Shown piece by piece: positions 4,384 to 17,052 of a stretch of DNA of 64,000 bases. The first letter of the stretch is position 1. Every line of letters starts with the position of its first letter. The translations under genes were made by a program, and so were the position numbers. Source of the DNA: an uncultured Clostridia bacterium (lineage in GTDB: Bacteria; Bacillota; Clostridia; Christensenellales; UBA1242); assembly GCA_934778215.1 (NCBI GenBank), contig CAKVOE010000002.1, positions 105,829 through 169,828 of the forward strand, given 5' to 3'. Below the pieces are notes generated by a model. The model did no database searches. It saw nothing but the letters and a program-made list of their open reading frames with translations, and was not told the DNA's origin.

Positions 4384-4807
4384 AACTCAAAATTTTATTA
4401 ACTCTTCTAAGGTGTCTCCCTCCGTCAAAAGGTTCTCTTATAAAAATTTCGCAAATTTTTAGAGCCTCTTCTTTTGAAATATTATCTGCACCAAAACTAA
4501 GACAATTAATATTGTTTTTGTGTCTTGCAAGTGTTACCGCATTTTCGCTTTCGCAAACGCCAGCCCGTATTCCAAACACTTTATTCATAGCAATAACCGC
4601 ACCCACTCCCGTTCGACAAATCATTATACCCAAATCGGCACTTTTATTTTTTACGCTTTCTGCCACCGCAAATGAAAAATCGGTGTAATCATCTTCGCTG
4701 TCTTGATTTAATGCACCCACATCAATAAAATTTACATTTTTTAAATTTTCTTTGATATATTCTTTATACAAAAAACCACCATGGTCTGAACCTATTGCAA
4801 TGTTCAT
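4355..4807 (-). CDS. rpiB: Ribose-5-phosphate isomerase B
   Basis: MNIAIGSDHGGF start and the active-site region GIMICRTGVGAVIAMNK are typical of the RpiB/LacAB family. The position after a ywlE-like phosphatase matches the Bacillus ywlE-ywlF synteny. Confidence 0.9.
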   Translation of the reverse strand: MNIAIGSDHGGFLYKEYIKENLKNVNFIDVGALNQDSEDDYTDFSFAVAESVKNKSADLGIMICRTGVGAVIAMNKVFGIRAGVCESENAVTLARHKNNINCLSFGADNISKEEALKICEIFIREPFDGGRHLRRVNKILSYEEKCNAKG

Positions 4808-5268
4808 TAAATTATACCTTCTTTATTTAAAATATTAATTAATTCTGTAACATATGCTTTCGCCATTTTGCACAACTCTAAATACGCCGATCTTCCAAGC
4901 CCAAAAGGGTCGGCAATTTCCGCACCTTTAATATAGTCAGAAAAAGCAACCACATTTTTTGCGTATGGCTCTTTATTTAAGATTGCGTTTTTGATTGCAC
5001 TGTTTACGCAAATTACCAATTGGTTTTGCTTAATTAGTTTTGGCGACAACGCCGTTGGGGTGTGATTGCTGTGCAAAATATTAAATTCTGATAGAGCATA
5101 TTTAGCATCGTCAGATATTGAAACATCATTACTATTAACAAAAATACCTGCACTAGACGCTTTTACAAGGGTATCTTTTTGCATTTTTTGGATTTCATCA
5201 TTAAAGATTGCCGAGATTATTGGCGACCGACAGGTATCGCCCGAACATACAAAAAGTATATTTACCAT
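4807..5268 (-). CDS. Low-molecular-weight phosphatase, YwlE-like (protein arginine/tyrosine phosphatase)
   Basis: N-terminal P-loop ILFVCSGDTCRSP (CX5R-S). The Thr before the second Cys matches the YwlE CTGNTCRSP pattern. ATGA overlap with rpiB. Confidence 0.8.
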   Translation of the reverse strand: MVNILFVCSGDTCRSPIISAIFNDEIQKMQKDTLVKASSAGIFVNSNDVSISDDAKYALSEFNILHSNHTPTALSPKLIKQNQLVICVNSAIKNAILNKEPYAKNVVAFSDYIKGAEIADPFGLGRSAYLELCKMAKAYVTELINILNKEGII

Positions 5269-5328: not shown

Positions 5329-5511
5329 CTAATTCTTGTTGGACATCTCACTAATTTCAACCGAAAGTTCAAAAAGTGAGTTTTTTAAATCTTGGTTATC
5401 CCTTTTTAAATATTCAATATCTCTTTTTTGAATACTTAACATATCTTCATAACTTTCAATAATTCTGTCCACTTCTTTTTTTGAATAATTTAGTTTTAAT
5501 TTACCAAACAT
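5329..5511 (-). CDS. Small DivIVA/GpsB-like coiled-coil protein
   Basis: YSKKEVDRIIESYEDMLSIQKRDIEYLKRDNQDLKNSL resembles the DivIVA N-terminal pattern (Y..EVD.F...ye.l..en..L). The start was moved to MFGKL. Confidence 0.4.
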   Translation of the reverse strand: MFGKLKLNYSKKEVDRIIESYEDMLSIQKRDIEYLKRDNQDLKNSLFELSVEISEMSNKN

Positions 5512-5556
5512 AAAAACTTCCCTCAACTATATTTTGAGAGAAGTTTAAAAAATTAT

Positions 5557-6117
5557 TTATTCGCTTTTTGCTTTTAGTAAATTTCCACAATATGGACAAA
5601 TTGCCTTTTCGCCATTAAAAACAACGGTTGCACCGCAATTTTCACACTTTGCACTATTAAGAAACTTTTTGGAATTGGTTTTGTTTACAATTTTCGCTAT
5701 TTCTAGTGCATTTCTTTCTCGCTGTTTTTGCTCTTCTTCTACAACTAGCACAATGCGGTCCTTTTCTACCTTTACGCCTTCAATGTACTCGTTATCTATC
5801 AAAAACAAAATAGAACCCGCTACTAGTGTTTTTCTTCTTTTTAGTCTGTTAGAAATTTCTTCTATTGATCTAACTTTGTCATACAAAATTAGTTCTCCCG
5901 AACGCCTAGCAAGCCCTACTTTTGCTATTCTTTTTACAAAAACAAAATCCCCATAAACTGAAAAGCATAAAAAGAATGCCCCACCTATCATATATACAAA
6001 ATTATCTTTTTCGTAACCGATTTTAATATATACAACCGAAGCAATTGCAATAAACATTGCAACAAATAGCAAAATGGTAAACGACACAATCTCTTGATTT
6101 AACTTTTTATAATTCAT
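5557..6117 (-). CDS. Membrane protein with two N-terminal TM helices and a C-terminal zinc ribbon
   Basis: TM segments near the N-terminus. C-terminal CENCGATVVFNGEKAICPYCGN (CxxC-N13-CxxC). Confidence 0.5.
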   Translation of the reverse strand: MNYKKLNQEIVSFTILLFVAMFIAIASVVYIKIGYEKDNFVYMIGGAFFLCFSVYGDFVFVKRIAKVGLARRSGELILYDKVRSIEEISNRLKRRKTLVAGSILFLIDNEYIEGVKVEKDRIVLVVEEEQKQRERNALEIAKIVNKTNSKKFLNSAKCENCGATVVFNGEKAICPYCGNLLKAKSE

Positions 6118-9162: not shown

Positions 9163-9798
9163 ATGCAAATAGAACCCATTGTTAGCACCAACGGAATGGA
9201 CCAAAATTCTTACCTTGTATACACAGATAACGCTTTGGTTATAATTGACGCAGGCTGTGACATTTCGGTGCTAAATTCCACCTTAATTCGCTTAAATTTG
9301 GCAAGCCGAAAGATTGATGCGGTAATTTTAACCCACACGCATTTTGACCATATTTTTGGGCTTTATGATATATTTAAAGCATTTTGTCCGCCAATTTATA
9401 TACACAAAGATTGCACCGACTTTTTGTTTGATAAAATTAAAAATGCTAGTTGCTATTTTGACGACTTTAATTTGCCCGAAGTTGTTAGGCAAAATATTGT
9501 TGAAGTCTTTGATAATCAATGCCTTAGTATAAATGATTTAATCTTTAAAATTCTATTTACCCCCGGCCACTCAAAGTGCTCAATGTGCATATTAGTAAAA
9601 AACATTTTGTTTACTGGCGATACAATTTTGCAAGGCTCTGTGGGTAGAACCGACCTATTTGGCGGAAGTTATGCAGAGTTACAAAACTCTTTAAACAGAA
9701 TAAAATCTTTAACCTTTGATACCGCCTACCCCGGCCACGGCAGAGCCCTTTCATATAACTTAGTTATGGGAATTATTAGGTTTAATAAAAAAATCTAA
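9163..9798 (+). CDS. MBL-fold metallo-hydrolase (glyoxalase II-like)
   Basis: LTHTHFDHIFG (HxHxDH motif), TPGHS, and GDT..GSVGRTDL. Start set at MQIEPI with a GGAGA RBS 6 nt upstream. Confidence 0.85.
   Translation: MQIEPIVSTNGMDQNSYLVYTDNALVIIDAGCDISVLNSTLIRLNLASRKIDAVILTHTHFDHIFGLYDIFKAFCPPIYIHKDCTDFLFDKIKNASCYFDDFNLPEVVRQNIVEVFDNQCLSINDLIFKILFTPGHSKCSMCILVKNILFTGDTILQGSVGRTDLFGGSYAELQNSLNRIKSLTFDTAYPGHGRALSYNLVMGIIRFNKKI
9727..9788. repeat. Direct repeat copy 1 (the functional 3' end of the MBL gene)
   Basis: The 48-nt stretch 9741-9788 is identical to 12290-12337. Weaker similarity extends about 14 nt further upstream. Confidence 0.95.
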
Positions 9799-9842
9799 CA
9801 CAAACTACTTGCGTTAGATTTTAAATGAAATAATATATCTCC

Positions 9843-10033
9843 ACACTCAATAAAGAACTTTTAATAAAAGTTGTTATTAGTATAAATTATAGGAAGTAAA
9901 TTTTGAAACAAGTTCAAAATTTGTGCTAACGCACTCGCAAAGCAATGCTTTGTACTTCCAATTTGAATAACCATCAGTCTCGCTGGAGAGTAAACTCTCC
10001 GACTCAACTTCCGATAATATAACTATTGAGTGT
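9843..10033. ncRNA. Candidate structured RNA or MITE-like element of unknown class (about 190 nt, multi-hairpin)
   Basis: Outer pair ACACTCAATA (9843-9852) with TATTGAGTGT (10024-10033). Inner helices: AACTTTT/AAAAGTT (9856-9872); GGAAGTA/TACTTCC (9892-9959), which encloses three hairpins (AAATTTTGAA..TTCAAAATTT, GTGC-TAAC-GCAC, CAAAGCA-A-TGCTTTG); and GGAGAG-TAAA-CTCTCC (9985-10000). Strand undetermined. Confidence 0.35.
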
Positions 10034-10119
10034 TTAATTTTTATTAATAGAAAATAGTAATTTTTTATACACTTACTTAGTTTTAGTATGTGTTTGATAT
10101 TTATTTAATATGTTTTTTG

Positions 10120-11850
10120 CTAAATATTTTCTACCATAAACATATTTTTAAAGTCTTGGTTAATTGCAAATAATTCTTCAAAAGTTCCTTCGCCTTTTAT
10201 GTTGCCATTTTCTAAAAAATAAATCTTGTCAGCATTTTTAATTGTTGACAAACGATGTGCAACAATTATTACTGTGCTGTTTTTTGAAAGAGCGTCTATG
10301 CTCTTTTTTATTTCTGCTTGTGCGAAGTTATCTAATGACGAAGTACTCTCATCAAATAAAATAACTTTTGTTTTTCTTAAAAGTGAACGAGCTATTGCTA
10401 ACCTTTGTTTTTGTCCGCCAGATAGTTTTATTCCACTCTCGCCAACCTTTGTATCTAGCCCTTTTGGAAGCGAAGATATAAACTCCCATATACTTGCATC
10501 TTTACACGCTTTTATTAATTCTTCTTCCGTTGCATCTTTTTTAACCATTAAAAGATTTTTGCGGATAGAATTGTCAAAAATATATGGAAACTGATTTACC
10601 ATACTTATATTTTCACGCAAGTACTTTTTGCTTAAATCTTTGACATTTATATCATCTAAAAGCACTTCTCCATCTTTGCAATCGGTAAGTTTACTTATTA
10701 AATTTAATATTGTAGTTTTACCCGAACCACTCTTTCCTACAAAGGCTACCGTAGTATTTGGTTTGATTGTAAAATTTAAGTTTTTTAACACATACGTTTC
10801 TTCTTTGTCGCCTTCATCTTGATATGCAAAATCAACATTTTTAAACTCAATTTTTCCTTCACAACTATTTGGAATTATTTCGCCAAATCGCTCGGTTGGA
10901 TATTTTTCATCATCTAAAATTTCAAACATACGCTTTATGCTCAATTTTGCCTCGCTAAAATTGTTTGCTATATTGCCAACTATCCACACAACCTCAGAAA
11001 TAGAACTTCTGTTCATTAAAACATACAAGAAACTTGTTAAAGCAAGTTTTCCATCTTTTAATAAAAATATTGACACCAAGGATACCACACCAAGCATAAT
11101 TACTATTATAAATTGTCTAAAATTCCAAAAGAACACATCAATTGCGTCACGCTTTTTTGAAATCGCCCTGTATCCATCGCAACATTTTTCTGTTTCTTTC
11201 GTTAAATTAGCATCTAAATTTAATGATTTTATATCTCTTTCAGATCTAACAATTTCATTAACCAAGCCAAGCATTTTGTCTTTTTCTTCTTTTTTCTTTT
11301 TGGTGTTTTTTACTTTGATTTTAATCTTAATATTTTCTAAGATAAACAACACCGTCAAAAATGCGACCAAAATTAAACCAATATATACATTTAAAAATAA
11401 AATATATACCGTTGTAATTGTAAATGACATAAGTTTAGCAAAGTCATCTAAAACACCATCTAACATATCTAGTGCATTTTCGGGATCATAGCACACACGG
11501 TTGATAAAATCGCCCGACTTAACATTGCTAAAAGTTTGAGTTTTTATTTTAAAAAATTGCTTCGTTAAATCTAATTGAATATCATAAGACAAGTCACTTC
11601 TAATAGTTACAAATATGCGACAAGACCAAAAATATAATATCCTACCTATTAAGGTAACCGCAACAACCAACGCACCAGCAATTATCGCATTTCTGTAATT
11701 GCCTGCACTAATTTCTGCAATAAAATCTGCAAGTTTAATTGTAGCAAAAATATTTCCCGCATTAAAAAGTAAAACTGTTAAAATGTATATTGCTATCTTT
11801 AACTTATATTTTTTTAAATATGTAAATAATCCAGTCTTATTCTTTTTCAT
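10120..11850 (-). CDS. ABC transporter, fused permease/ATP-binding protein (type I exporter, MsbA/MdlB-like); no peptidase domain
   Basis: Six-TM N-terminal half. Walker A GKSGSGKTT, signature LSGGQKQRLAIAR, Walker B ILFDESTSSLD. Start moved to MKKNKTGLF (RBS GAGAGGA). Confidence 0.9.
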   Translation of the reverse strand: MKKNKTGLFTYLKKYKLKIAIYILTVLLFNAGNIFATIKLADFIAEISAGNYRNAIIAGALVVAVTLIGRILYFWSCRIFVTIRSDLSYDIQLDLTKQFFKIKTQTFSNVKSGDFINRVCYDPENALDMLDGVLDDFAKLMSFTITTVYILFLNVYIGLILVAFLTVLFILENIKIKIKVKNTKKKKEEKDKMLGLVNEIVRSERDIKSLNLDANLTKETEKCCDGYRAISKKRDAIDVFFWNFRQFIIVIMLGVVSLVSIFLLKDGKLALTSFLYVLMNRSSISEVVWIVGNIANNFSEAKLSIKRMFEILDDEKYPTERFGEIIPNSCEGKIEFKNVDFAYQDEGDKEETYVLKNLNFTIKPNTTVAFVGKSGSGKTTILNLISKLTDCKDGEVLLDDINVKDLSKKYLRENISMVNQFPYIFDNSIRKNLLMVKKDATEEELIKACKDASIWEFISSLPKGLDTKVGESGIKLSGGQKQRLAIARSLLRKTKVILFDESTSSLDNFAQAEIKKSIDALSKNSTVIIVAHRLSTIKNADKIYFLENGNIKGEGTFEELFAINQDFKNMFMVENI

Positions 11851-12010
11851 AATTAATTTCCTCTCTTTTACGTAAAAGTTTGTTAGCATTAAATAAGATA
11901 TTGTTTTAATTATTAATTGCAATTTTTGTACAAAATTTTTAGATAAAAAATCTTGCTAAAAGCATTTGTATACAATTTTTCGTTAAAACACTCTACTTAT
12001 CTTTTCGTAA

Positions 12011-12041
12011 AAAAAATCACACCCAACTTTTGCGGTGTGAC
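12011..12041 (-). terminator. Rho-independent terminator between the 23-codon ORF and the ABC exporter
   Basis: Minus strand: TCACACC-gcaaaagttg-GGTGTGA followed by TTTTTTTT. It starts about 20 nt after the small-ORF stop. Confidence 0.7.
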
Positions 12042-12063
12042 TTTGAGTTTCAAAAATTAATTA

Positions 12064-12135
12064 CTAAAAAAACAACTCACCAAAAGAGATACCACAAAAA
12101 TTAACATAATTTAATTTACTAACACTATTGTTCAT
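12064..12135 (-). CDS. Unannotated 23-aa ORF, MNNSVSKLNYVNFCGISFGELFF (candidate exported peptide or regulatory leader peptide)
   Basis: Below the ORF-track size cut-off and translated by hand. Perfect SD AAGGAGG 8 nt upstream of the ATG, own promoter upstream, terminator downstream. Confidence 0.55.
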   Translation of the reverse strand: MNNSVSKLNYVNFCGISFGELFF

Positions 12136-12167
12136 TTTTTATACCTCCTTTTTAAATTTCTACTATT

Positions 12168-12196
12168 ACTCTAACACGCATCGGCGTGTTTGTCAA
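12168..12196 (-). promoter_or_regulatory. Promoter of the 23-codon ORF with a palindromic operator in the spacer
   Basis: Minus strand: TTGACA (12196..12191), 17-nt spacer, TAGAGT (12173..12168). The spacer contains the palindrome AACACGC-cgat-GCGTGTT (12173-12190). Confidence 0.55.
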
Positions 12197-12274
12197 CCCC
12201 AAAACTACAAAAAGCAAAATTATTTTAACTTTTCTTTTTCGCTCTCTGTGAAGTGACTGAGTTTAGACAGTTTT

Positions 12275-12337
12275 TACCACCGGTCACAGCAGAGCCCTTT
12301 CATATAACTTAGTTATGGGAATTATTAGGTTTAATAA
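12275..12337. repeat. Direct repeat copy 2 (orphan relic of an MBL-gene 3' end)
   Basis: 12290-12337 is identical to 9741-9788. In frame it reads ..TGHSRALSYNLVMGIIRFNN*, compared with ..PGHGRALSYNLVMGIIRFNKKI* in the intact gene. No ORF lies upstream of it. Confidence 0.9.
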
Positions 12338-12450
12338 TTAAACAATTCTAAAATTTGTAAATTATTGCCCTTCCATTATTGGTTTAATTTTAAATAAATT
12401 CATTATGCAAAAATATAAAACTTTACACCCCGATAGGAACAAGATTGCTC

Positions 12451-12479
12451 TTGACAAACTTATTTATGCGTGCTAAAAT
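12451..12479 (+). promoter_or_regulatory. Sigma-A promoter of the Fic-family gene
   Basis: TTGACA (12451-12456), 17 nt, TAAAAT (12474-12479). Confidence 0.6.
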
Positions 12480-12523
12480 AAACTAATTAAACAATAGAAT
12501 ATATAGTTTTTTAAGGGATTTTT

Positions 12524-13510
12524 ATGAGAAAGAATAAGTTTAATATAAGCGAAAAAGCGTTTAGAATAATTGAAGACAGCGTATTATTAGAAGGATTTAA
12601 TTATGACGCAAGCACAGTATTTCCTTCTGGAAAAGACTATTTTAAAACCATAGACAAAGACACCGTGGTTGCATTTTTGGAATGTCCGGATACCGAGGTT
12701 GTAGCCGTAAAAACGGGTTCAAATAACTATGAACTTGTTGCAACAAACCGCCAAGCAAATGAATCTATAAGAATATCAGGGCTTGGCAATCACTTTGTTG
12801 CTCTTGTAAGAGTGGTTTTGCAAGCAAAAAAGCAATTAGCAAACCCAACAGAGCCAAAGATAACCAATAATTTTATCAAATCAATAAATGAACAATTGTT
12901 GTTAAATCGTATGGGCGAGGTTGCCATAGGTTCATACCGCTACAAAGACTTTTGGGGCAGAGATGCCGATGTGTCTATTTGTAGCATCGAAAACGGAAGA
13001 AAGATTCGCCAAAGCACTTTTAACACCGAACCAAGCGCAGATAAAAATGTTTATAAAAAGATGGACGAACTGGTTAACTGGGTTAATAATGACGCCTTTA
13101 AAGACAGCGAATCAATTATGTATGATATTGCCAAATTTCATTCTACCTTTATAAGAATTTACCCATTTCGTGATGGCAACGGCAGAACAGCCCGACTTTT
13201 AACAAACTATTTGTTGTTAATTAATGGCTACCCACTTGTAAACATTCCACCAGCAGGCGTTAAACAATATCACTGTGCAATTAATTACGCCGAAGCAACA
13301 ACCGATAAAGACTTTTGCCGAGATGATTACTATAATAACGCTTATGCCTATTATGCAAAAAGATTTGGCAAGCGAGATGATGTTACCAAATATTGCCCTC
13401 TTGCCGATTTTTTTGAGCGACACCTTTTAGAATCTAGTAACACGCTTATAAATAATATAATAAACTATAAAAACACACAATCACATATAGAATCTACTCA
13501 AATTCAATAA
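12524..13510 (+). CDS. Fic/DOC-family protein with a degenerate active-site motif (Tyr in place of the catalytic His)
   Basis: FHSTFIRIYPFRDGNGRTARLL matches the Fic core HxFx(D/E)GNGRxxR except for the first residue (TAC Tyr at 13160-13162). An SVLLEG (S/TxxxE-G/N-like) stretch lies at residues 19-24. Confidence 0.8.
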   Translation: MRKNKFNISEKAFRIIEDSVLLEGFNYDASTVFPSGKDYFKTIDKDTVVAFLECPDTEVVAVKTGSNNYELVATNRQANESIRISGLGNHFVALVRVVLQAKKQLANPTEPKITNNFIKSINEQLLLNRMGEVAIGSYRYKDFWGRDADVSICSIENGRKIRQSTFNTEPSADKNVYKKMDELVNWVNNDAFKDSESIMYDIAKFHSTFIRIYPFRDGNGRTARLLTNYLLLINGYPLVNIPPAGVKQYHCAINYAEATTDKDFCRDDYYNNAYAYYAKRFGKRDDVTKYCPLADFFERHLLESSNTLINNIINYKNTQSHIESTQIQ

Positions 13511-14241: not shown

Positions 14242-14506
14242 TTTTTCTCCCGTTAAAATTTTGTCATTCGCATATTTTGTTACAAACATTTTTGTCTATG
14301 ACAAAAATTTTTAATGCTAAATAGTTTAGTTGTTTTTCTATTTAGTACATTATAACACAAAACTAAATTTTGTACACTATTTTTAACAACTTTTAAGCCC
14401 TTTGTTGAAAGTCACCCCAACAACCATTTTGCAACAACCTTCTCCACCGCCTTCGCTTGTAATGATTGTATTTTTACCTAAAAATTCTATAATATAACCC
14501 TGTGTT

Positions 14507-14911
14507 TTAATCAGAATCTTTTAAAGACGCTCTAATATTCTCGGGTTGTTTGAACCAATATCTCAATCCCTTGCCAGCATAAGGCTCGTCAGCATATCTT
14601 GGAATTACATGCATATGAGCGTGAGCGACCTCTTGACCTCCAACCTTTCCAACATTCCAGCCAATATTATATCCGTCTGGTTTATATTTTTCATCTAAAT
14701 ATTTTTTCAATTCTTTAAGAAGAGCCTTTGAGTCCATCCACTCTTTATCTGATAAGTCAAACGGTGTTCCAACCTGCGACTTTGGTATAATTACATATGA
14801 GCCTATAAGGGTATTGTTTTTCAAGTTGTTTGATTTTACAGCAATCATAGTGTCGTTTTCAAAAGTTTTTTCATTGCTTTCCAAATTAAGGTCTATAGGT
14901 TTCTTCTCCAT
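14507..14911 (-). CDS. HIT-family nucleotide hydrolase/transferase
   Basis: Histidine triad QEVAHAHMHVIPR. Start moved to MEKKPIDL (RBS AAGGAAGGA). Confidence 0.8.
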   Translation of the reverse strand: MEKKPIDLNLESNEKTFENDTMIAVKSNNLKNNTLIGSYVIIPKSQVGTPFDLSDKEWMDSKALLKELKKYLDEKYKPDGYNIGWNVGKVGGQEVAHAHMHVIPRYADEPYAGKGLRYWFKQPENIRASLKDSD

Positions 14912-15237
14912 TTTCTTTTCCTTCCTTTTTAAAAATTTTATTAGTTGCTCCATTGTTAATATATTTTTATTACAATATTCTGAATTGAAACAATATATGA
15001 TTGGTTTTGATTTGTAATTCCCGTTTTTCCATTTGTCTACCAATGTTAAATATTCATTTTATTTAACCATACCTAATAAGCCTAATTGTTAACCAAAATT
15101 ACGGAAACAACCACCCCATGCAAGGCAAAGCGACAACATTCTTATCTTTGGTTGCCTTGAATGGCTGAGAAACGCGAAGTATTTAAAATGTTCAATATTT
15201 ATTGCTTTTCCAATCCAATCTAATCTCTCTAGAACAA

Positions 15238-15987
15238 TCATCTTTCTGAGCATTTATCTTTTAAATGTATTTCTTTGCTGTGTAATGGACAATGTTGATT
15301 CTTTTTATTACAATATTTTCTCTTGAAATATATTAAAGATAAATGTGCCCACCAATTAAAAGCATTTTCACTTATATCTAATCCATTTTCTTCTATAAAT
15401 TTCTTTTTATCAATAAACGCAACATCTTTTTCTAGTTCTTTTCTGGCATATTCATGACCAATTCCCGATTTTTGTTTTTTATACCCTAAGCAGGGAAGCA
15501 ATATGTCTTTCATTCCAGAATCAACGGGCATTATTGAATTTGGATATCCTTTATAATACAATAAACAACATTGAGCAACCTTGTAAGAAGCTCCTACCAC
15601 TTCTTTATTAACTAAACTAATAAATTCATCTTCTTCTAAAATATTTAAATCTTTATGCTTATCAATAAAATCATACATTGAATCTATGTACTTCAACCTT
15701 GTTGCAGATAACCCTAAAGTCTTGATAACATCAATTTTTTCATCATCACTAAACTCTTTAAATTTATCAAAGCCTATTGAAATTAAATTATTAATTACCT
15801 TTCTATAACTTTCTATCATTGAATAGGATACTCTGGTTGACAACCCTGCAATAATTAACCTTAATCTTTTATCTTCAACATTGCTTGGCCACCAAAGATT
15901 GTTGCTAAAATTCTTACTAACCTCATTTTGCAACTCTTTATCACTAGCAAGTATCTTTAAAACCTTTTCAATTTGTTCTTTCATCAT
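15238..15987 (-). CDS. HhH-GPD superfamily DNA glycosylase-like protein
   Basis: The helix-hairpin-helix plus Asp pattern VVGASYKVAQCCLLYYKGYPNSIMPVDSGMKDIL resembles LPGVGxKTA...PVDTHV of Nth/AlkA-type enzymes. Cys/His-rich C-terminus. Confidence 0.45.
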   Translation of the reverse strand: MMKEQIEKVLKILASDKELQNEVSKNFSNNLWWPSNVEDKRLRLIIAGLSTRVSYSMIESYRKVINNLISIGFDKFKEFSDDEKIDVIKTLGLSATRLKYIDSMYDFIDKHKDLNILEEDEFISLVNKEVVGASYKVAQCCLLYYKGYPNSIMPVDSGMKDILLPCLGYKKQKSGIGHEYARKELEKDVAFIDKKKFIEENGLDISENAFNWWAHLSLIYFKRKYCNKKNQHCPLHSKEIHLKDKCSER

Positions 15988-16329
15988 TTTTCTCCTAACT
16001 ATATAATTATCTTTGGGAGGTTTTAGTATAGATTTTTCATTTACAATATAGCACATTTATTAAATTTATGTCAAATTTTTACATATTAGTTGTCAAACCT
16101 ATCAATTTTTGAATATAAAGTTTTCTCTCATTAAAAAAAAGAAAAGCTATTTTTGTAATACCTACTAAGGGTCACTATAAAATAGCCTTCCTTTTTATTT
16201 ACTTGTGTGTGTACAACCAAAAGTCTTTTTTTTGATTATTTTTCTTTGATTTTGCGACTGATTTTGATTATCACACACTTTTTATTAAAATTTTGTTTAT
16301 ATCAATTTTAACCCAACAATTACAGTTGT

Positions 16330-17052
16330 TTACTTTAAATTTAATTCTTCTAACACCTTATCATGTTTATGCATAACTTCCTCTGCTTCTTGCTGTCTTC
16401 TTATTTTTTCTTGCTCTTCTTGTTTCTTTTTTTGTTCATTCTTCATTCTGATGTCATGAGCAGTGGATAAAACATACTCAATTGCATCTAAATAATAGCG
16501 TTTAGCAGTTTCAAGTTGTTCTTTACTTTGGGCTAGTTTAATAAATCGACGTGTATCATCCTTCACTTTTTTTATAACGAATGCTAAAAGTTTATTACTC
16601 ACAAAAACTTCGTCTTCTAAACCGTCTACATCAACTTTGTCTTCATAGAATCTTCTTATAGCGACATATTCGCTTAAATTAAAAAGATTACCGTCAACAT
16701 CTCTATATTCACGCGTTCCATTTTCTAGCACAACAAAACCAACACCGTTTGAATATGGCTCAGCGTATCTATACTCTTCGCTTAATTCCCCATTTACATC
16801 TCTATATGCATACTTTCCATTTTTTAACAGAACCCGACCAAGGCCGTCTGAATATGGGTCAGCACATATATACTCTTCGCTTAGATTGCCGTCCATATCT
16901 CTATACGCACACATACCATTATGTAACTCAACTAAGCCAAACCCATAAGAATAATCAGAAGCCTCTCTGAATACCTCGCTTATATTTTCATTTTCATCTT
17001 CATACCAGAAACCTGCACCACACCAACCTCTCAGTTTCCAATTTTTACTCAT
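16330..17052 (-). CDS. WG/KWG-type repeat protein with a C-terminal coiled coil
   Basis: Three or more roughly 38-aa repeats (NG..AYRD.DGNLSEEY..A.PYS.G.G.V.L), also visible as DNA repeats at about 16740-16930. Glu/Lys-rich coiled-coil tail. Confidence 0.5.
   Translation of the reverse strand: MSKNWKLRGWCGAGFWYEDENENISEVFREASDYSYGFGLVELHNGMCAYRDMDGNLSEEYICADPYSDGLGRVLLKNGKYAYRDVNGELSEEYRYAEPYSNGVGFVVLENGTREYRDVDGNLFNLSEYVAIRRFYEDKVDVDGLEDEVFVSNKLLAFVIKKVKDDTRRFIKLAQSKEQLETAKRYYLDAIEYVLSTAHDIRMKNEQKKKQEEQEKIRRQQEAEEVMHKHDKVLEELNLK

Follow-up and report, generated by a model that had tools for sequence, protein, structure and literature searches.

Genomic islets are strain-variable insertions of a single operon between conserved genes that are exchanged by homologous recombination of their flanks. 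Cis-mobilizable elements (CIMEs) are elements that lack integration and transfer genes and have retained both of their attachment (att) sites, attL and attR (PMC5704250). In Bacillus subtilis, the ATP-binding cassette (ABC) multidrug exporter encoded by bmrBCD is controlled by leader-peptide, ribosome-mediated transcription attenuation (PMC4191407). These are the closest described systems for a locus that we analyzed in a 64-kb stretch of DNA (the window) from an uncultured Clostridia bacterium (contig CAKVOE010000002.1). In this window, a metallo-β-lactamase (MBL)-fold hydrolase gene is followed by an interval that holds an ABC exporter operon on the opposite strand and that is bounded by two copies of the MBL gene's own 3′ end. 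Comparison with related alleles and loci shows the interval to be an insertion at the extreme 3′ end of the MBL gene. We favor, at a probability of roughly 0.55, the reading that it is an ordinary strain-variable genomic islet, in which a foreign, self-contained module would have integrated once and been passive thereafter.

Insertion at the 3′ end of the MBL gene

The MBL gene (9163–9798, plus strand) encodes 211 amino acids (aa) with a match to Pfam Lactamase_B (E 5e-29), and its native end, the last 58–63 nt, is present twice. A repeat search of the window recovered a direct-repeat pair on the plus strand at 9731–9793 (R1) and 12280–12342 (R2), 63 nt long at 94% identity with a spacing of 2549 nt. 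The perfect core of this pair measures 49 nt (9740–9788 and 12289–12337), and no perfect repeat of such length is expected from 100 dinucleotide-preserving shuffles of the window. An earlier note, made from the letters of the window, had located the same repeat but counted 48 nt. It had also described weaker similarity for 14–25 nt upstream, of which only about 10–14 nt (from 9727 or 9731) are solid; by direct reading of the sequence, anything farther upstream needs a 1-nt indel and is not convincing. R1 is the functional gene end and reads in frame to ...AYPGHGRALSYNLVMGIIRFNKKI and a stop (also written ...PGHGRALSYNLVMGIIRFNKKI), giving a protein that ends in RFNKKI. The inserted DNA supplies the final three codons and the stop (AAA AAA ATC TAA, 9787–9798). 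R2 translates, after a stop, as TVFTTGHSRALSYNLVMGIIRFNN and a second stop (also ...TGHSRALSYNLVMGIIRFNN or ...GHSRALSYNLVMGIIRFNN), and so ends in RFNN. Three in-frame stops lie just upstream of it, and it is therefore an orphan, with a sharp left edge at 12276–12280. The proposal that the first copy is the real gene end and the second an orphan relic thus holds, on the in-frame translation and Lactamase_B match for the one and the upstream stops for the other.

Alleles of the MBL gene in other strains identify which end is the native one. Within the 13-member 90%-identity cluster of the MBL protein, 10 members end in RFNKKI and three in RFNN. One of these three (P0138, found on three contigs of up to 14.4 kb) is otherwise about 99% identical to the filled alleles, and the other two (P0143 and P0145) represent a lineage at about 94% identity. 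RFNN followed by a stop is exactly the end predicted from copy 2, which makes copy 2 the displaced native end and means that empty-type alleles exist. The earlier suggestion that the downstream copy was left behind by an insertion agrees with this match. Read from these protein ends, the islet varies between strains of one species. For contigs assembled with k-mers that exceed the 49-nt repeat in length, an artefact behind the RFNN ends is unlikely. All contigs that carry exactly the MBL or Fic protein of the window are either filled or broken at repeats, and a second strain, 98.3% identical, has the same repeat. The search for empty-site alleles that the earlier note had proposed therefore succeeded in part: MBL alleles with the predicted RFNN C-terminus occur in the same species, and the MBL–Fic junction itself is a prediction, in which ...GGTTTAATAATTAAACAATTC would be followed directly by the Fic promoter. 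In the window, the Fic-domain gene (12524–13510, plus strand; region 12451–13510) is intact on the 3′ side of the insertion and has its own promoter at 12451–12479.

The relic copy is drifting. Between the window and strain L020 there are five differences in 12240–12300 versus 15 in the entire 1731-nt exporter gene. One of the L020 single-nucleotide polymorphisms, at 12288, restores identity to R1, and another, at 12297, breaks the 49-nt block. Judged from these substitutions, the drift of the relic is neutral decay of a recent duplication and not conservation of an attachment site. No more than 2 of 58 nt separate the relic from R1, against an intergenic divergence of about 4% between strains, and the event is therefore recent.

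The module and its proposed route into the gene

The part of the interval that is conserved elsewhere, which we call the module, occupies 9789–12239 on the minus strand. In minus-strand order it consists of an A/T-rich edge hairpin, a promoter, a strong Shine-Dalgarno sequence, a 23-codon open reading frame (ORF), a terminator, the exporter gene, a structured stretch, and an edge terminator. The promoter with operator, 23-codon ORF, terminator, ABC exporter, and structured stretch that the earlier note had listed are all there. At the right edge, an A/T-rich inverted repeat (12209–12239) forms a boundary that is identical in three flanking contexts, those of the window and of two related loci, L003 and L004. 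The left edge is a bidirectional terminator hairpin (9790–9822) that overlaps the new MBL stop codon and is kept in the same two loci. The promoter (12168–12196, minus strand) has TTGACA and TAGAGT hexamers separated by 17 nt, with a TG, and is conserved in L003, L007, and L015. Its spacer holds a perfect palindrome, AACACGC and GCGTGTT around CGAT (AACACGCCGATGCGTGTT, 12173–12190), which is the only such site in the window and presumably an operator. Between the module and the relic lies a 40-nt segment, X (12240–12279), that is common to no related module and drifts fast between strains.

The module is not confined to the MBL gene and recurs at unrelated sites. In two GTDB species representatives, Clostridia bacterium HGM11367 and HGM11346 (loci L031 and L032), and in several gut metagenomes, a close homologue of the exporter (92–93% aa identity) is flanked by a SipL-domain gene on one side and spo0A on the other. 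By blastn against L003, L004, L031, and L032, the window matches these SipL–Spo0A modules at 88–89% nt identity from about 9783–9789 to 12239 only, and the flanks are unrelated; L003 and L004 share the identical right edge beside two differing flanks. More distant orthologues (74–78% aa) lie upstream of pepF–mreB or after rpoC, and all of these loci keep the layout of promoter, leader, and terminator. The cassette had been expected at other loci if it were mobile, and its presence in related genomes supports the view that this DNA is acquired and variable. Comparison of L031 with L032 revealed 96% identity across the module versus 83.5% across the flanking SipL/Spo0A regions, which suggests recent exchange of the module by recombination. 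The GC content of the module is 28.4% against 34.2% for the window overall, and GC at third codon positions is 24% in the exporter gene against 30–36% in host genes. In a related species (L024; MBL 67% aa identity), the synteny of the MBL gene with the Fic and membrane protein genes is kept with a CYTH gene in between, and the exporter is absent. Species-discordant identity, low GC at all and at third positions, and absence from a related species all point to horizontal acquisition of the module. A second metagenome scan, using the promoter/operator pattern, returned the same loci as before and no new ones. One viral match to the operator pattern (L056) was discarded as an unrelated promoter.

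In contrast to the interval in the window, the related modules have no repeat around them. Those in L003, L004, L031, and L032 end at the equivalents of window positions 12239 and 9783 with neither an MBL fragment nor a repeat of at least 20 nt, and so stop 40 nt short of the position of the relic. No direct repeats of at least 20 nt were found at the module edges in L003, L004, L007, and L011. Mobility functions were likewise sought. The scanned ORFs of at least 120 aa across the 64-kb window contain no Pfam integrase or transposase domain, in line with what the letters alone had suggested. A 30-mer from the repeat core had 0 matches in JGI metagenomes and viral contigs, and blastn of the whole cassette region against plasmid and phage collections gave no related match, only weak generic matches to ABC ATPase domains or none; the public collections searched cover this uncultured clade poorly. 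The 2.5-kb module is also unlike a transposon or insertion sequence, in that it has no transposase, its ends share A/T runs only, and the repeat is 58–63 nt long.

In the sequence of events that we favor, a horizontally acquired module would have integrated one base before the MBL stop codon. The upstream repeat copy would have stayed in the MBL frame, with the gene now ending in KKI instead of N, and the downstream copy, as the displaced native end, would have been left to decay neutrally. The repeat would then be the footprint of that single integration and not the att site of a dedicated system, because related modules have no R, X, or flanking repeats, no recombinase is present, and the core is absent from the searched collections. 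The likely route would be a single crossover of a circular intermediate carrying about 60 nt of MBL 3′ sequence, or else a duplicative illegitimate insertion. The structure R–module–X–R is the outcome of a single crossover between the gene end and an R-bearing circle, whether by RecA or an integrase, and a duplicative illegitimate insertion looks alike. Should the two 49-nt blocks recombine with each other, the islet would be lost and the RFNN allele known from other strains restored. Several points weigh against an ordinary islet. Tyrosine-integrase elements likewise insert at 3′ ends, keep the frame, and leave a repeat of about 60 nt, and the repeat here has a length typical of those that integrases generate. 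A duplication of 58–63 nt is long for an illegitimate event, there is no known source for a circle bearing an MBL fragment, and neither module nor MBL homology explains where the 40-nt X came from. A regulator to go with the palindromic operator is also missing from the islet. Finally, the uninterrupted MBL–Fic junction downstream of RFNN alleles is deduced from protein ends and not seen in DNA.

The integrase-like features could instead mark a decayed integrative element, that is, a CIME. An integrase-bearing island would have entered the MBL 3′ end site-specifically, lost its integrase and transfer genes as the definition of a CIME has it (PMC5704250), kept R1 as attL and R2 as attR, and could still be excised or moved in trans by the integrase of a related element. 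A 63-nt repeat (49 nt perfect) does flank the interval at the 3′ end of a conserved gene that is kept intact, and presence/absence variation within the species fits as well. However, no integrase turned up among the scanned ORFs of the 64 kb, the interval holds the module, X, and the small insertion described below and nothing more, and no shared att core or related plasmid or phage cassette turned up in the searched collections. Homologous modules elsewhere have neither retained att sequences nor an MBL fragment, and the relic mutates freely even within the 49-nt block. We therefore find this explanation doubtful. More improbable in our view is that the module is a discrete cargo unit with fixed ends (an A-run with terminator hairpin at 9789 and a T-run with hairpin at 12239) that is mobilized in trans between sites and species, either by an integrase using the 49-nt MBL core as its att site or by a hairpin-recognizing enzyme, so that RFNN alleles would reflect precise excision. 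A site-specific cassette mobilized in trans was what the earlier note had proposed, and it does not sit well with homologous modules that are free of MBL fragments and flanking repeats, with the missing viral, plasmid, and phage matches, or with the neutral drift of the relic.

Another conceivable origin is homology-facilitated illegitimate recombination. Here a donor with the module right after its MBL gene would have been joined by homology upstream and illegitimately at the X end to about position 12280 in the recipient MBL gene, the last 63 nt of which would be the relic. The sharp left edge of the relic at 12276–12280 is what such a join would leave. The relic carries the species' own sequence, RALSYNLV, and not that of the 94% lineage, and X is unrelated to the module or the MBL gene, as a donor flank would be. 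Two events would be needed, though; the donor arrangement, an MBL gene followed by the module with no repeat, has not been observed, and the repeat is present in all filled contigs seen. On balance we regard this route as unlikely. The null explanation, in which the MBL 3′ end was duplicated locally long ago and no mobile DNA took part, had been named in advance as the reading to adopt if all relatives shared the arrangement. All strains with DNA seen do share it, and yet the module recurs, edges unchanged, at loci unrelated to this one, the syntenic interval of L024 does not contain it, RFNN alleles exist, and the few differences between R1 and the relic indicate a recent event. An old duplication is thus highly improbable, and a one-off integration followed by passive inheritance remains the reading that we prefer.

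The surroundings of the islet in the window are housekeeping and sporulation genes, and some side observations were made there. Two strains that are 98.3% identical to the window, L020 and L021, are without 256 bp inside the Fic gene (window 13152–13408) and without about 1.7 kb (14430–16117) in which the window has a 272-aa ORF and a HIT-domain gene; strain variability thus extends beyond the islet on its downstream side. A 240-aa ORF farther on (16330–17052, minus strand) has an internal repeat of about 99 nt (16697–16828 versus 16796–16927, 76%) and no Pfam match. The stretch at 16249–16927 is 91% identical to L024, whose neighboring genes are only 70–75% identical to those of the window. 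The other loci provided further observations. In L004 (7801–8274) and L003 (9138–9614), on the minus strand as the loci are oriented, an ORF of 157/158 aa that converges with the exporter gene runs about 40 codons into the terminal hairpin region of the module, so that at the SipL–Spo0A locus, too, the module abuts and extends the 3′ end of a neighboring gene. Just beyond the right edge of the module in L003, a 52–55-nt tandem repeat (TTTGCTAACGCAA...GATGAATTAGGGT) accompanies a GC-rich hairpin stretch (5370–5476), with a related copy 6.5 kb away at about 12045–12140, and may be a dispersed intergenic repeat. Where the exporter lies beside pepF, a conserved unit of about 120 nt stands just upstream of the module (L007, about 1700–1880; L011, about 5470–5620; L015, about 4700–4860; L060, about 590–760). 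This unit comes with a promoter (GGGTATTGACA...TAATAT) and a terminator that belong to it, contains AAGCAAAAGCAAA...TTTTATCCCCAATAAAATA, and looks like a small RNA gene. It has no match in Rfam at the gathering score and no copy in the window.

The exporter, its predicted leader, and a MITE-like element

The exporter gene (10120–11850, minus strand) encodes an ABCB-type half-transporter of 576 aa in which the Pfam domains ABC_membrane and ABC_tran are fused and no peptidase domain is present. In sequence searches it matches Sav1866 and TM287/288-type chains over its full length, and its best PDB matches are ABCB1 and Sav1866. With both domains in one polypeptide, it qualifies as an ABCB (type IV) homodimeric exporter. 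It could not be placed in any named subfamily (MsbA, bacteriocin exporter, Tet(46), etc.), and against NCBIfam it reached no cut-off, the best model being MsbA at 334 bits versus a cut-off of 602. Nothing marks it as an exporter of peptide bacteriocins or pheromones, since the transporter has ABC_membrane and ABC_tran only and the module contains no further genes. Its domain makeup and relatives suggest that it is an efflux pump.

Upstream of the exporter gene, the 23-codon ORF MNNSVSKLNYVNFCGISFGELFF (12064–12135, minus strand) is followed by an intrinsic terminator (12009–12044, minus strand) with a stem of GTCACACC and GGTGTGAT and then a U-run. All nine homologous leaders have AAGGAGG and then ATG with 20–23 codons; the length of the ORF is kept while its sequence has diverged. 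The terminator is conserved as a structure: 96% of cells are paired across the nine leaders, compared with 30–64% in slid controls, and three of its nine pairs show compensatory change. Two further pairings involve the second half of the ORF. Codons 12–21 (about 12073–12100) are able to form a duplex with the terminator's 5′ arm and loop that has an energy of −9 to −16 kcal/mol and is about as stable as the terminator itself, and this antiterminator energy is reached by only 1–4% of shuffles in seven of the nine leaders. Codons 12–19 (about 12081–12102) can pair with the ORF's own Shine-Dalgarno sequence, forming an SD/anti-SD duplex that is matched by at most 1.3% of shuffles in eight of the nine. 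No Rfam match to the leader was obtained, either at gathering scores or at E values up to 10. Because ORF length, covarying terminator, antiterminator, and SD/anti-SD pairing are all conserved, the 23-codon ORF is most likely the regulatory leader of a predicted transcription attenuator and not the source of a gene product. As modeled, the three helices follow the classic 1:2 / 2:3 / 3:4 logic of attenuators. Smooth translation of the leader would allow the SD/anti-SD helix and the terminator to form, and transcription would stop. A ribosome stalled early in the leader, as by a putative inducer, would leave codons 12–19 free to pair with the 5′ arm of the terminator, and transcription would read through into the exporter gene. 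In two of the nine leaders, L011 and L060, the antiterminator is weak, which counts against this scheme.

Peptide-export loci commonly consist of a peptide gene, then a leaky terminator, then an exporter. The 23-residue peptide could by this analogy be the product, a small hydrophobic signaling or toxic peptide overproduced from a terminator-limited transcript and exported by the adjacent transporter. A strong Shine-Dalgarno sequence, the conserved ORF length, and the hydrophobic C-terminal halves of the peptides are all compatible with this possibility. The peptide sequence, however, is poorly conserved while the RNA pairings at fixed codon positions are conserved; the peptide is without a double-glycine leader, a C39 peptidase domain is missing from the transporter, and the module has no receptor, immunity, or modification gene. 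We consider an exported peptide improbable, and the ORF that had been reported as part of the cassette, although present, is better read as an attenuator leader.

The structured stretch downstream of the exporter gene had been described as a 190-nt element belonging to the module, but its core proved to be a separate insertion that related modules do not have. This 131-bp insertion (9887–10017) lies in the 3′ untranslated region of the exporter gene and resembles a miniature inverted-repeat transposable element (MITE), with 11-bp inverted ends, TTATAGGAAGT and ACTTCCGATAA, that match at 10 of 11 positions. Alignment with homologous modules shows it to be flanked by a TATAA target duplication (9881–9885 and 10018–10022). 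The element is absent from L004, L013, L031, and L032, which have a single TATAAA there, and excising it with one TATAA restores colinearity; it would have arrived after the module had integrated. It has a strong fold on both strands (z −5.3 and −6.3). Against Rfam, at gathering scores and at E values up to 10, the structured stretch gave only noise (DUF2815 RNA, E 0.95). No second copy was found in the window or in about 60 loci, and the inverted-end pattern had only chance-level matches in the viral collection, in one GC-rich stretch and in a methyltransferase gene. The borders of the element coincide exactly with the ends of four contigs, from four assemblies (three samples), that stop at 10018–10022 or begin at 9882, and these breaks suggest further copies elsewhere in the genome. 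Two other readings of this stretch were rejected: a tRNA-like reading of the four-way junction, in which ARAGORN detected no tRNA, and an inversion switch between 11-bp inverted repeats at 9843 and 10024, for which the contig breaks are wrongly placed. Terminal inverted repeats of 11 bp, a 5-bp target duplication, a strong predicted fold, the lack of coding capacity, and an empty site in homologous modules are all as in MITEs. It differs from established MITEs in that multiple copies are suggested by contig breaks only and that no parent insertion sequence or family was matched. As a separate observation, L003 (7797–9156), L012, and the equivalents in L005 and L006 carry an inserted gene for an AAA_14/DUF4143 ATPase (416 aa) where the window has the MITE-like element in the exporter 3′ untranslated region, and near this gene a 46-nt hairpin is duplicated. 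This region is therefore an insertion hot spot.

Significance and comparison with known systems

The islet, the predicted leader-peptide attenuator, the ABCB exporter, and the MITE-like element are all of known kinds, and the locus is not a new kind of mobile element. What it does show, for uncultured, spore-forming gut Clostridia, is a 2.4-kb insulated module in which a whole efflux operon and its regulatory parts pass from one species or chromosomal site to another. If the exporter does confer drug tolerance, the module would be a compact, transferable resistance determinant, with inducibility that is predicted from sequence. The conserved 23-codon leader, in which three helices compete, may represent a new family of attenuators and is a clean candidate for one. 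The locus also offers a caution, which is that a duplicated gene end with no recombinase need not mark a site-specific element.

In its regulation, the locus most resembles bmrBCD, which also has a repressor-controlled promoter (the operator here is presumed), a short leader ORF, and alternative stem-loops, including an intrinsic terminator, upstream of an ABCB-type exporter (PMC4191407). The leaders have no detectable sequence relationship, and attenuation at the present locus is predicted by computation alone. The leader here has 23 codons, its terminator follows the stop codon and is not within the ORF, and it is the Shine-Dalgarno region of the leader itself that serves as the first pairing partner. 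One gene for a homodimeric half-transporter takes the place of the heterodimeric BmrC/BmrD.

In its architecture, the interval invites comparison with CIMEs derived from the integrative and conjugative elements and the integrative and mobilizable elements of Firmicutes, with which it shares direct repeats at the 3′ end of a conserved gene and the lack of integrase and transfer genes inside (PMC5704250). Unlike them, it has no integrase-bearing partner element or shared att core among the sequences found, related modules elsewhere are without the repeat, and it carries just one operon, with nothing left over from an island backbone. The comparison with genomic islets is closer. A target-gene repeat of about 60 nt is not a regular islet feature, but in its size, its presence or absence within a species, its deviating base composition, and its freedom from mobility genes, the interval is like them.

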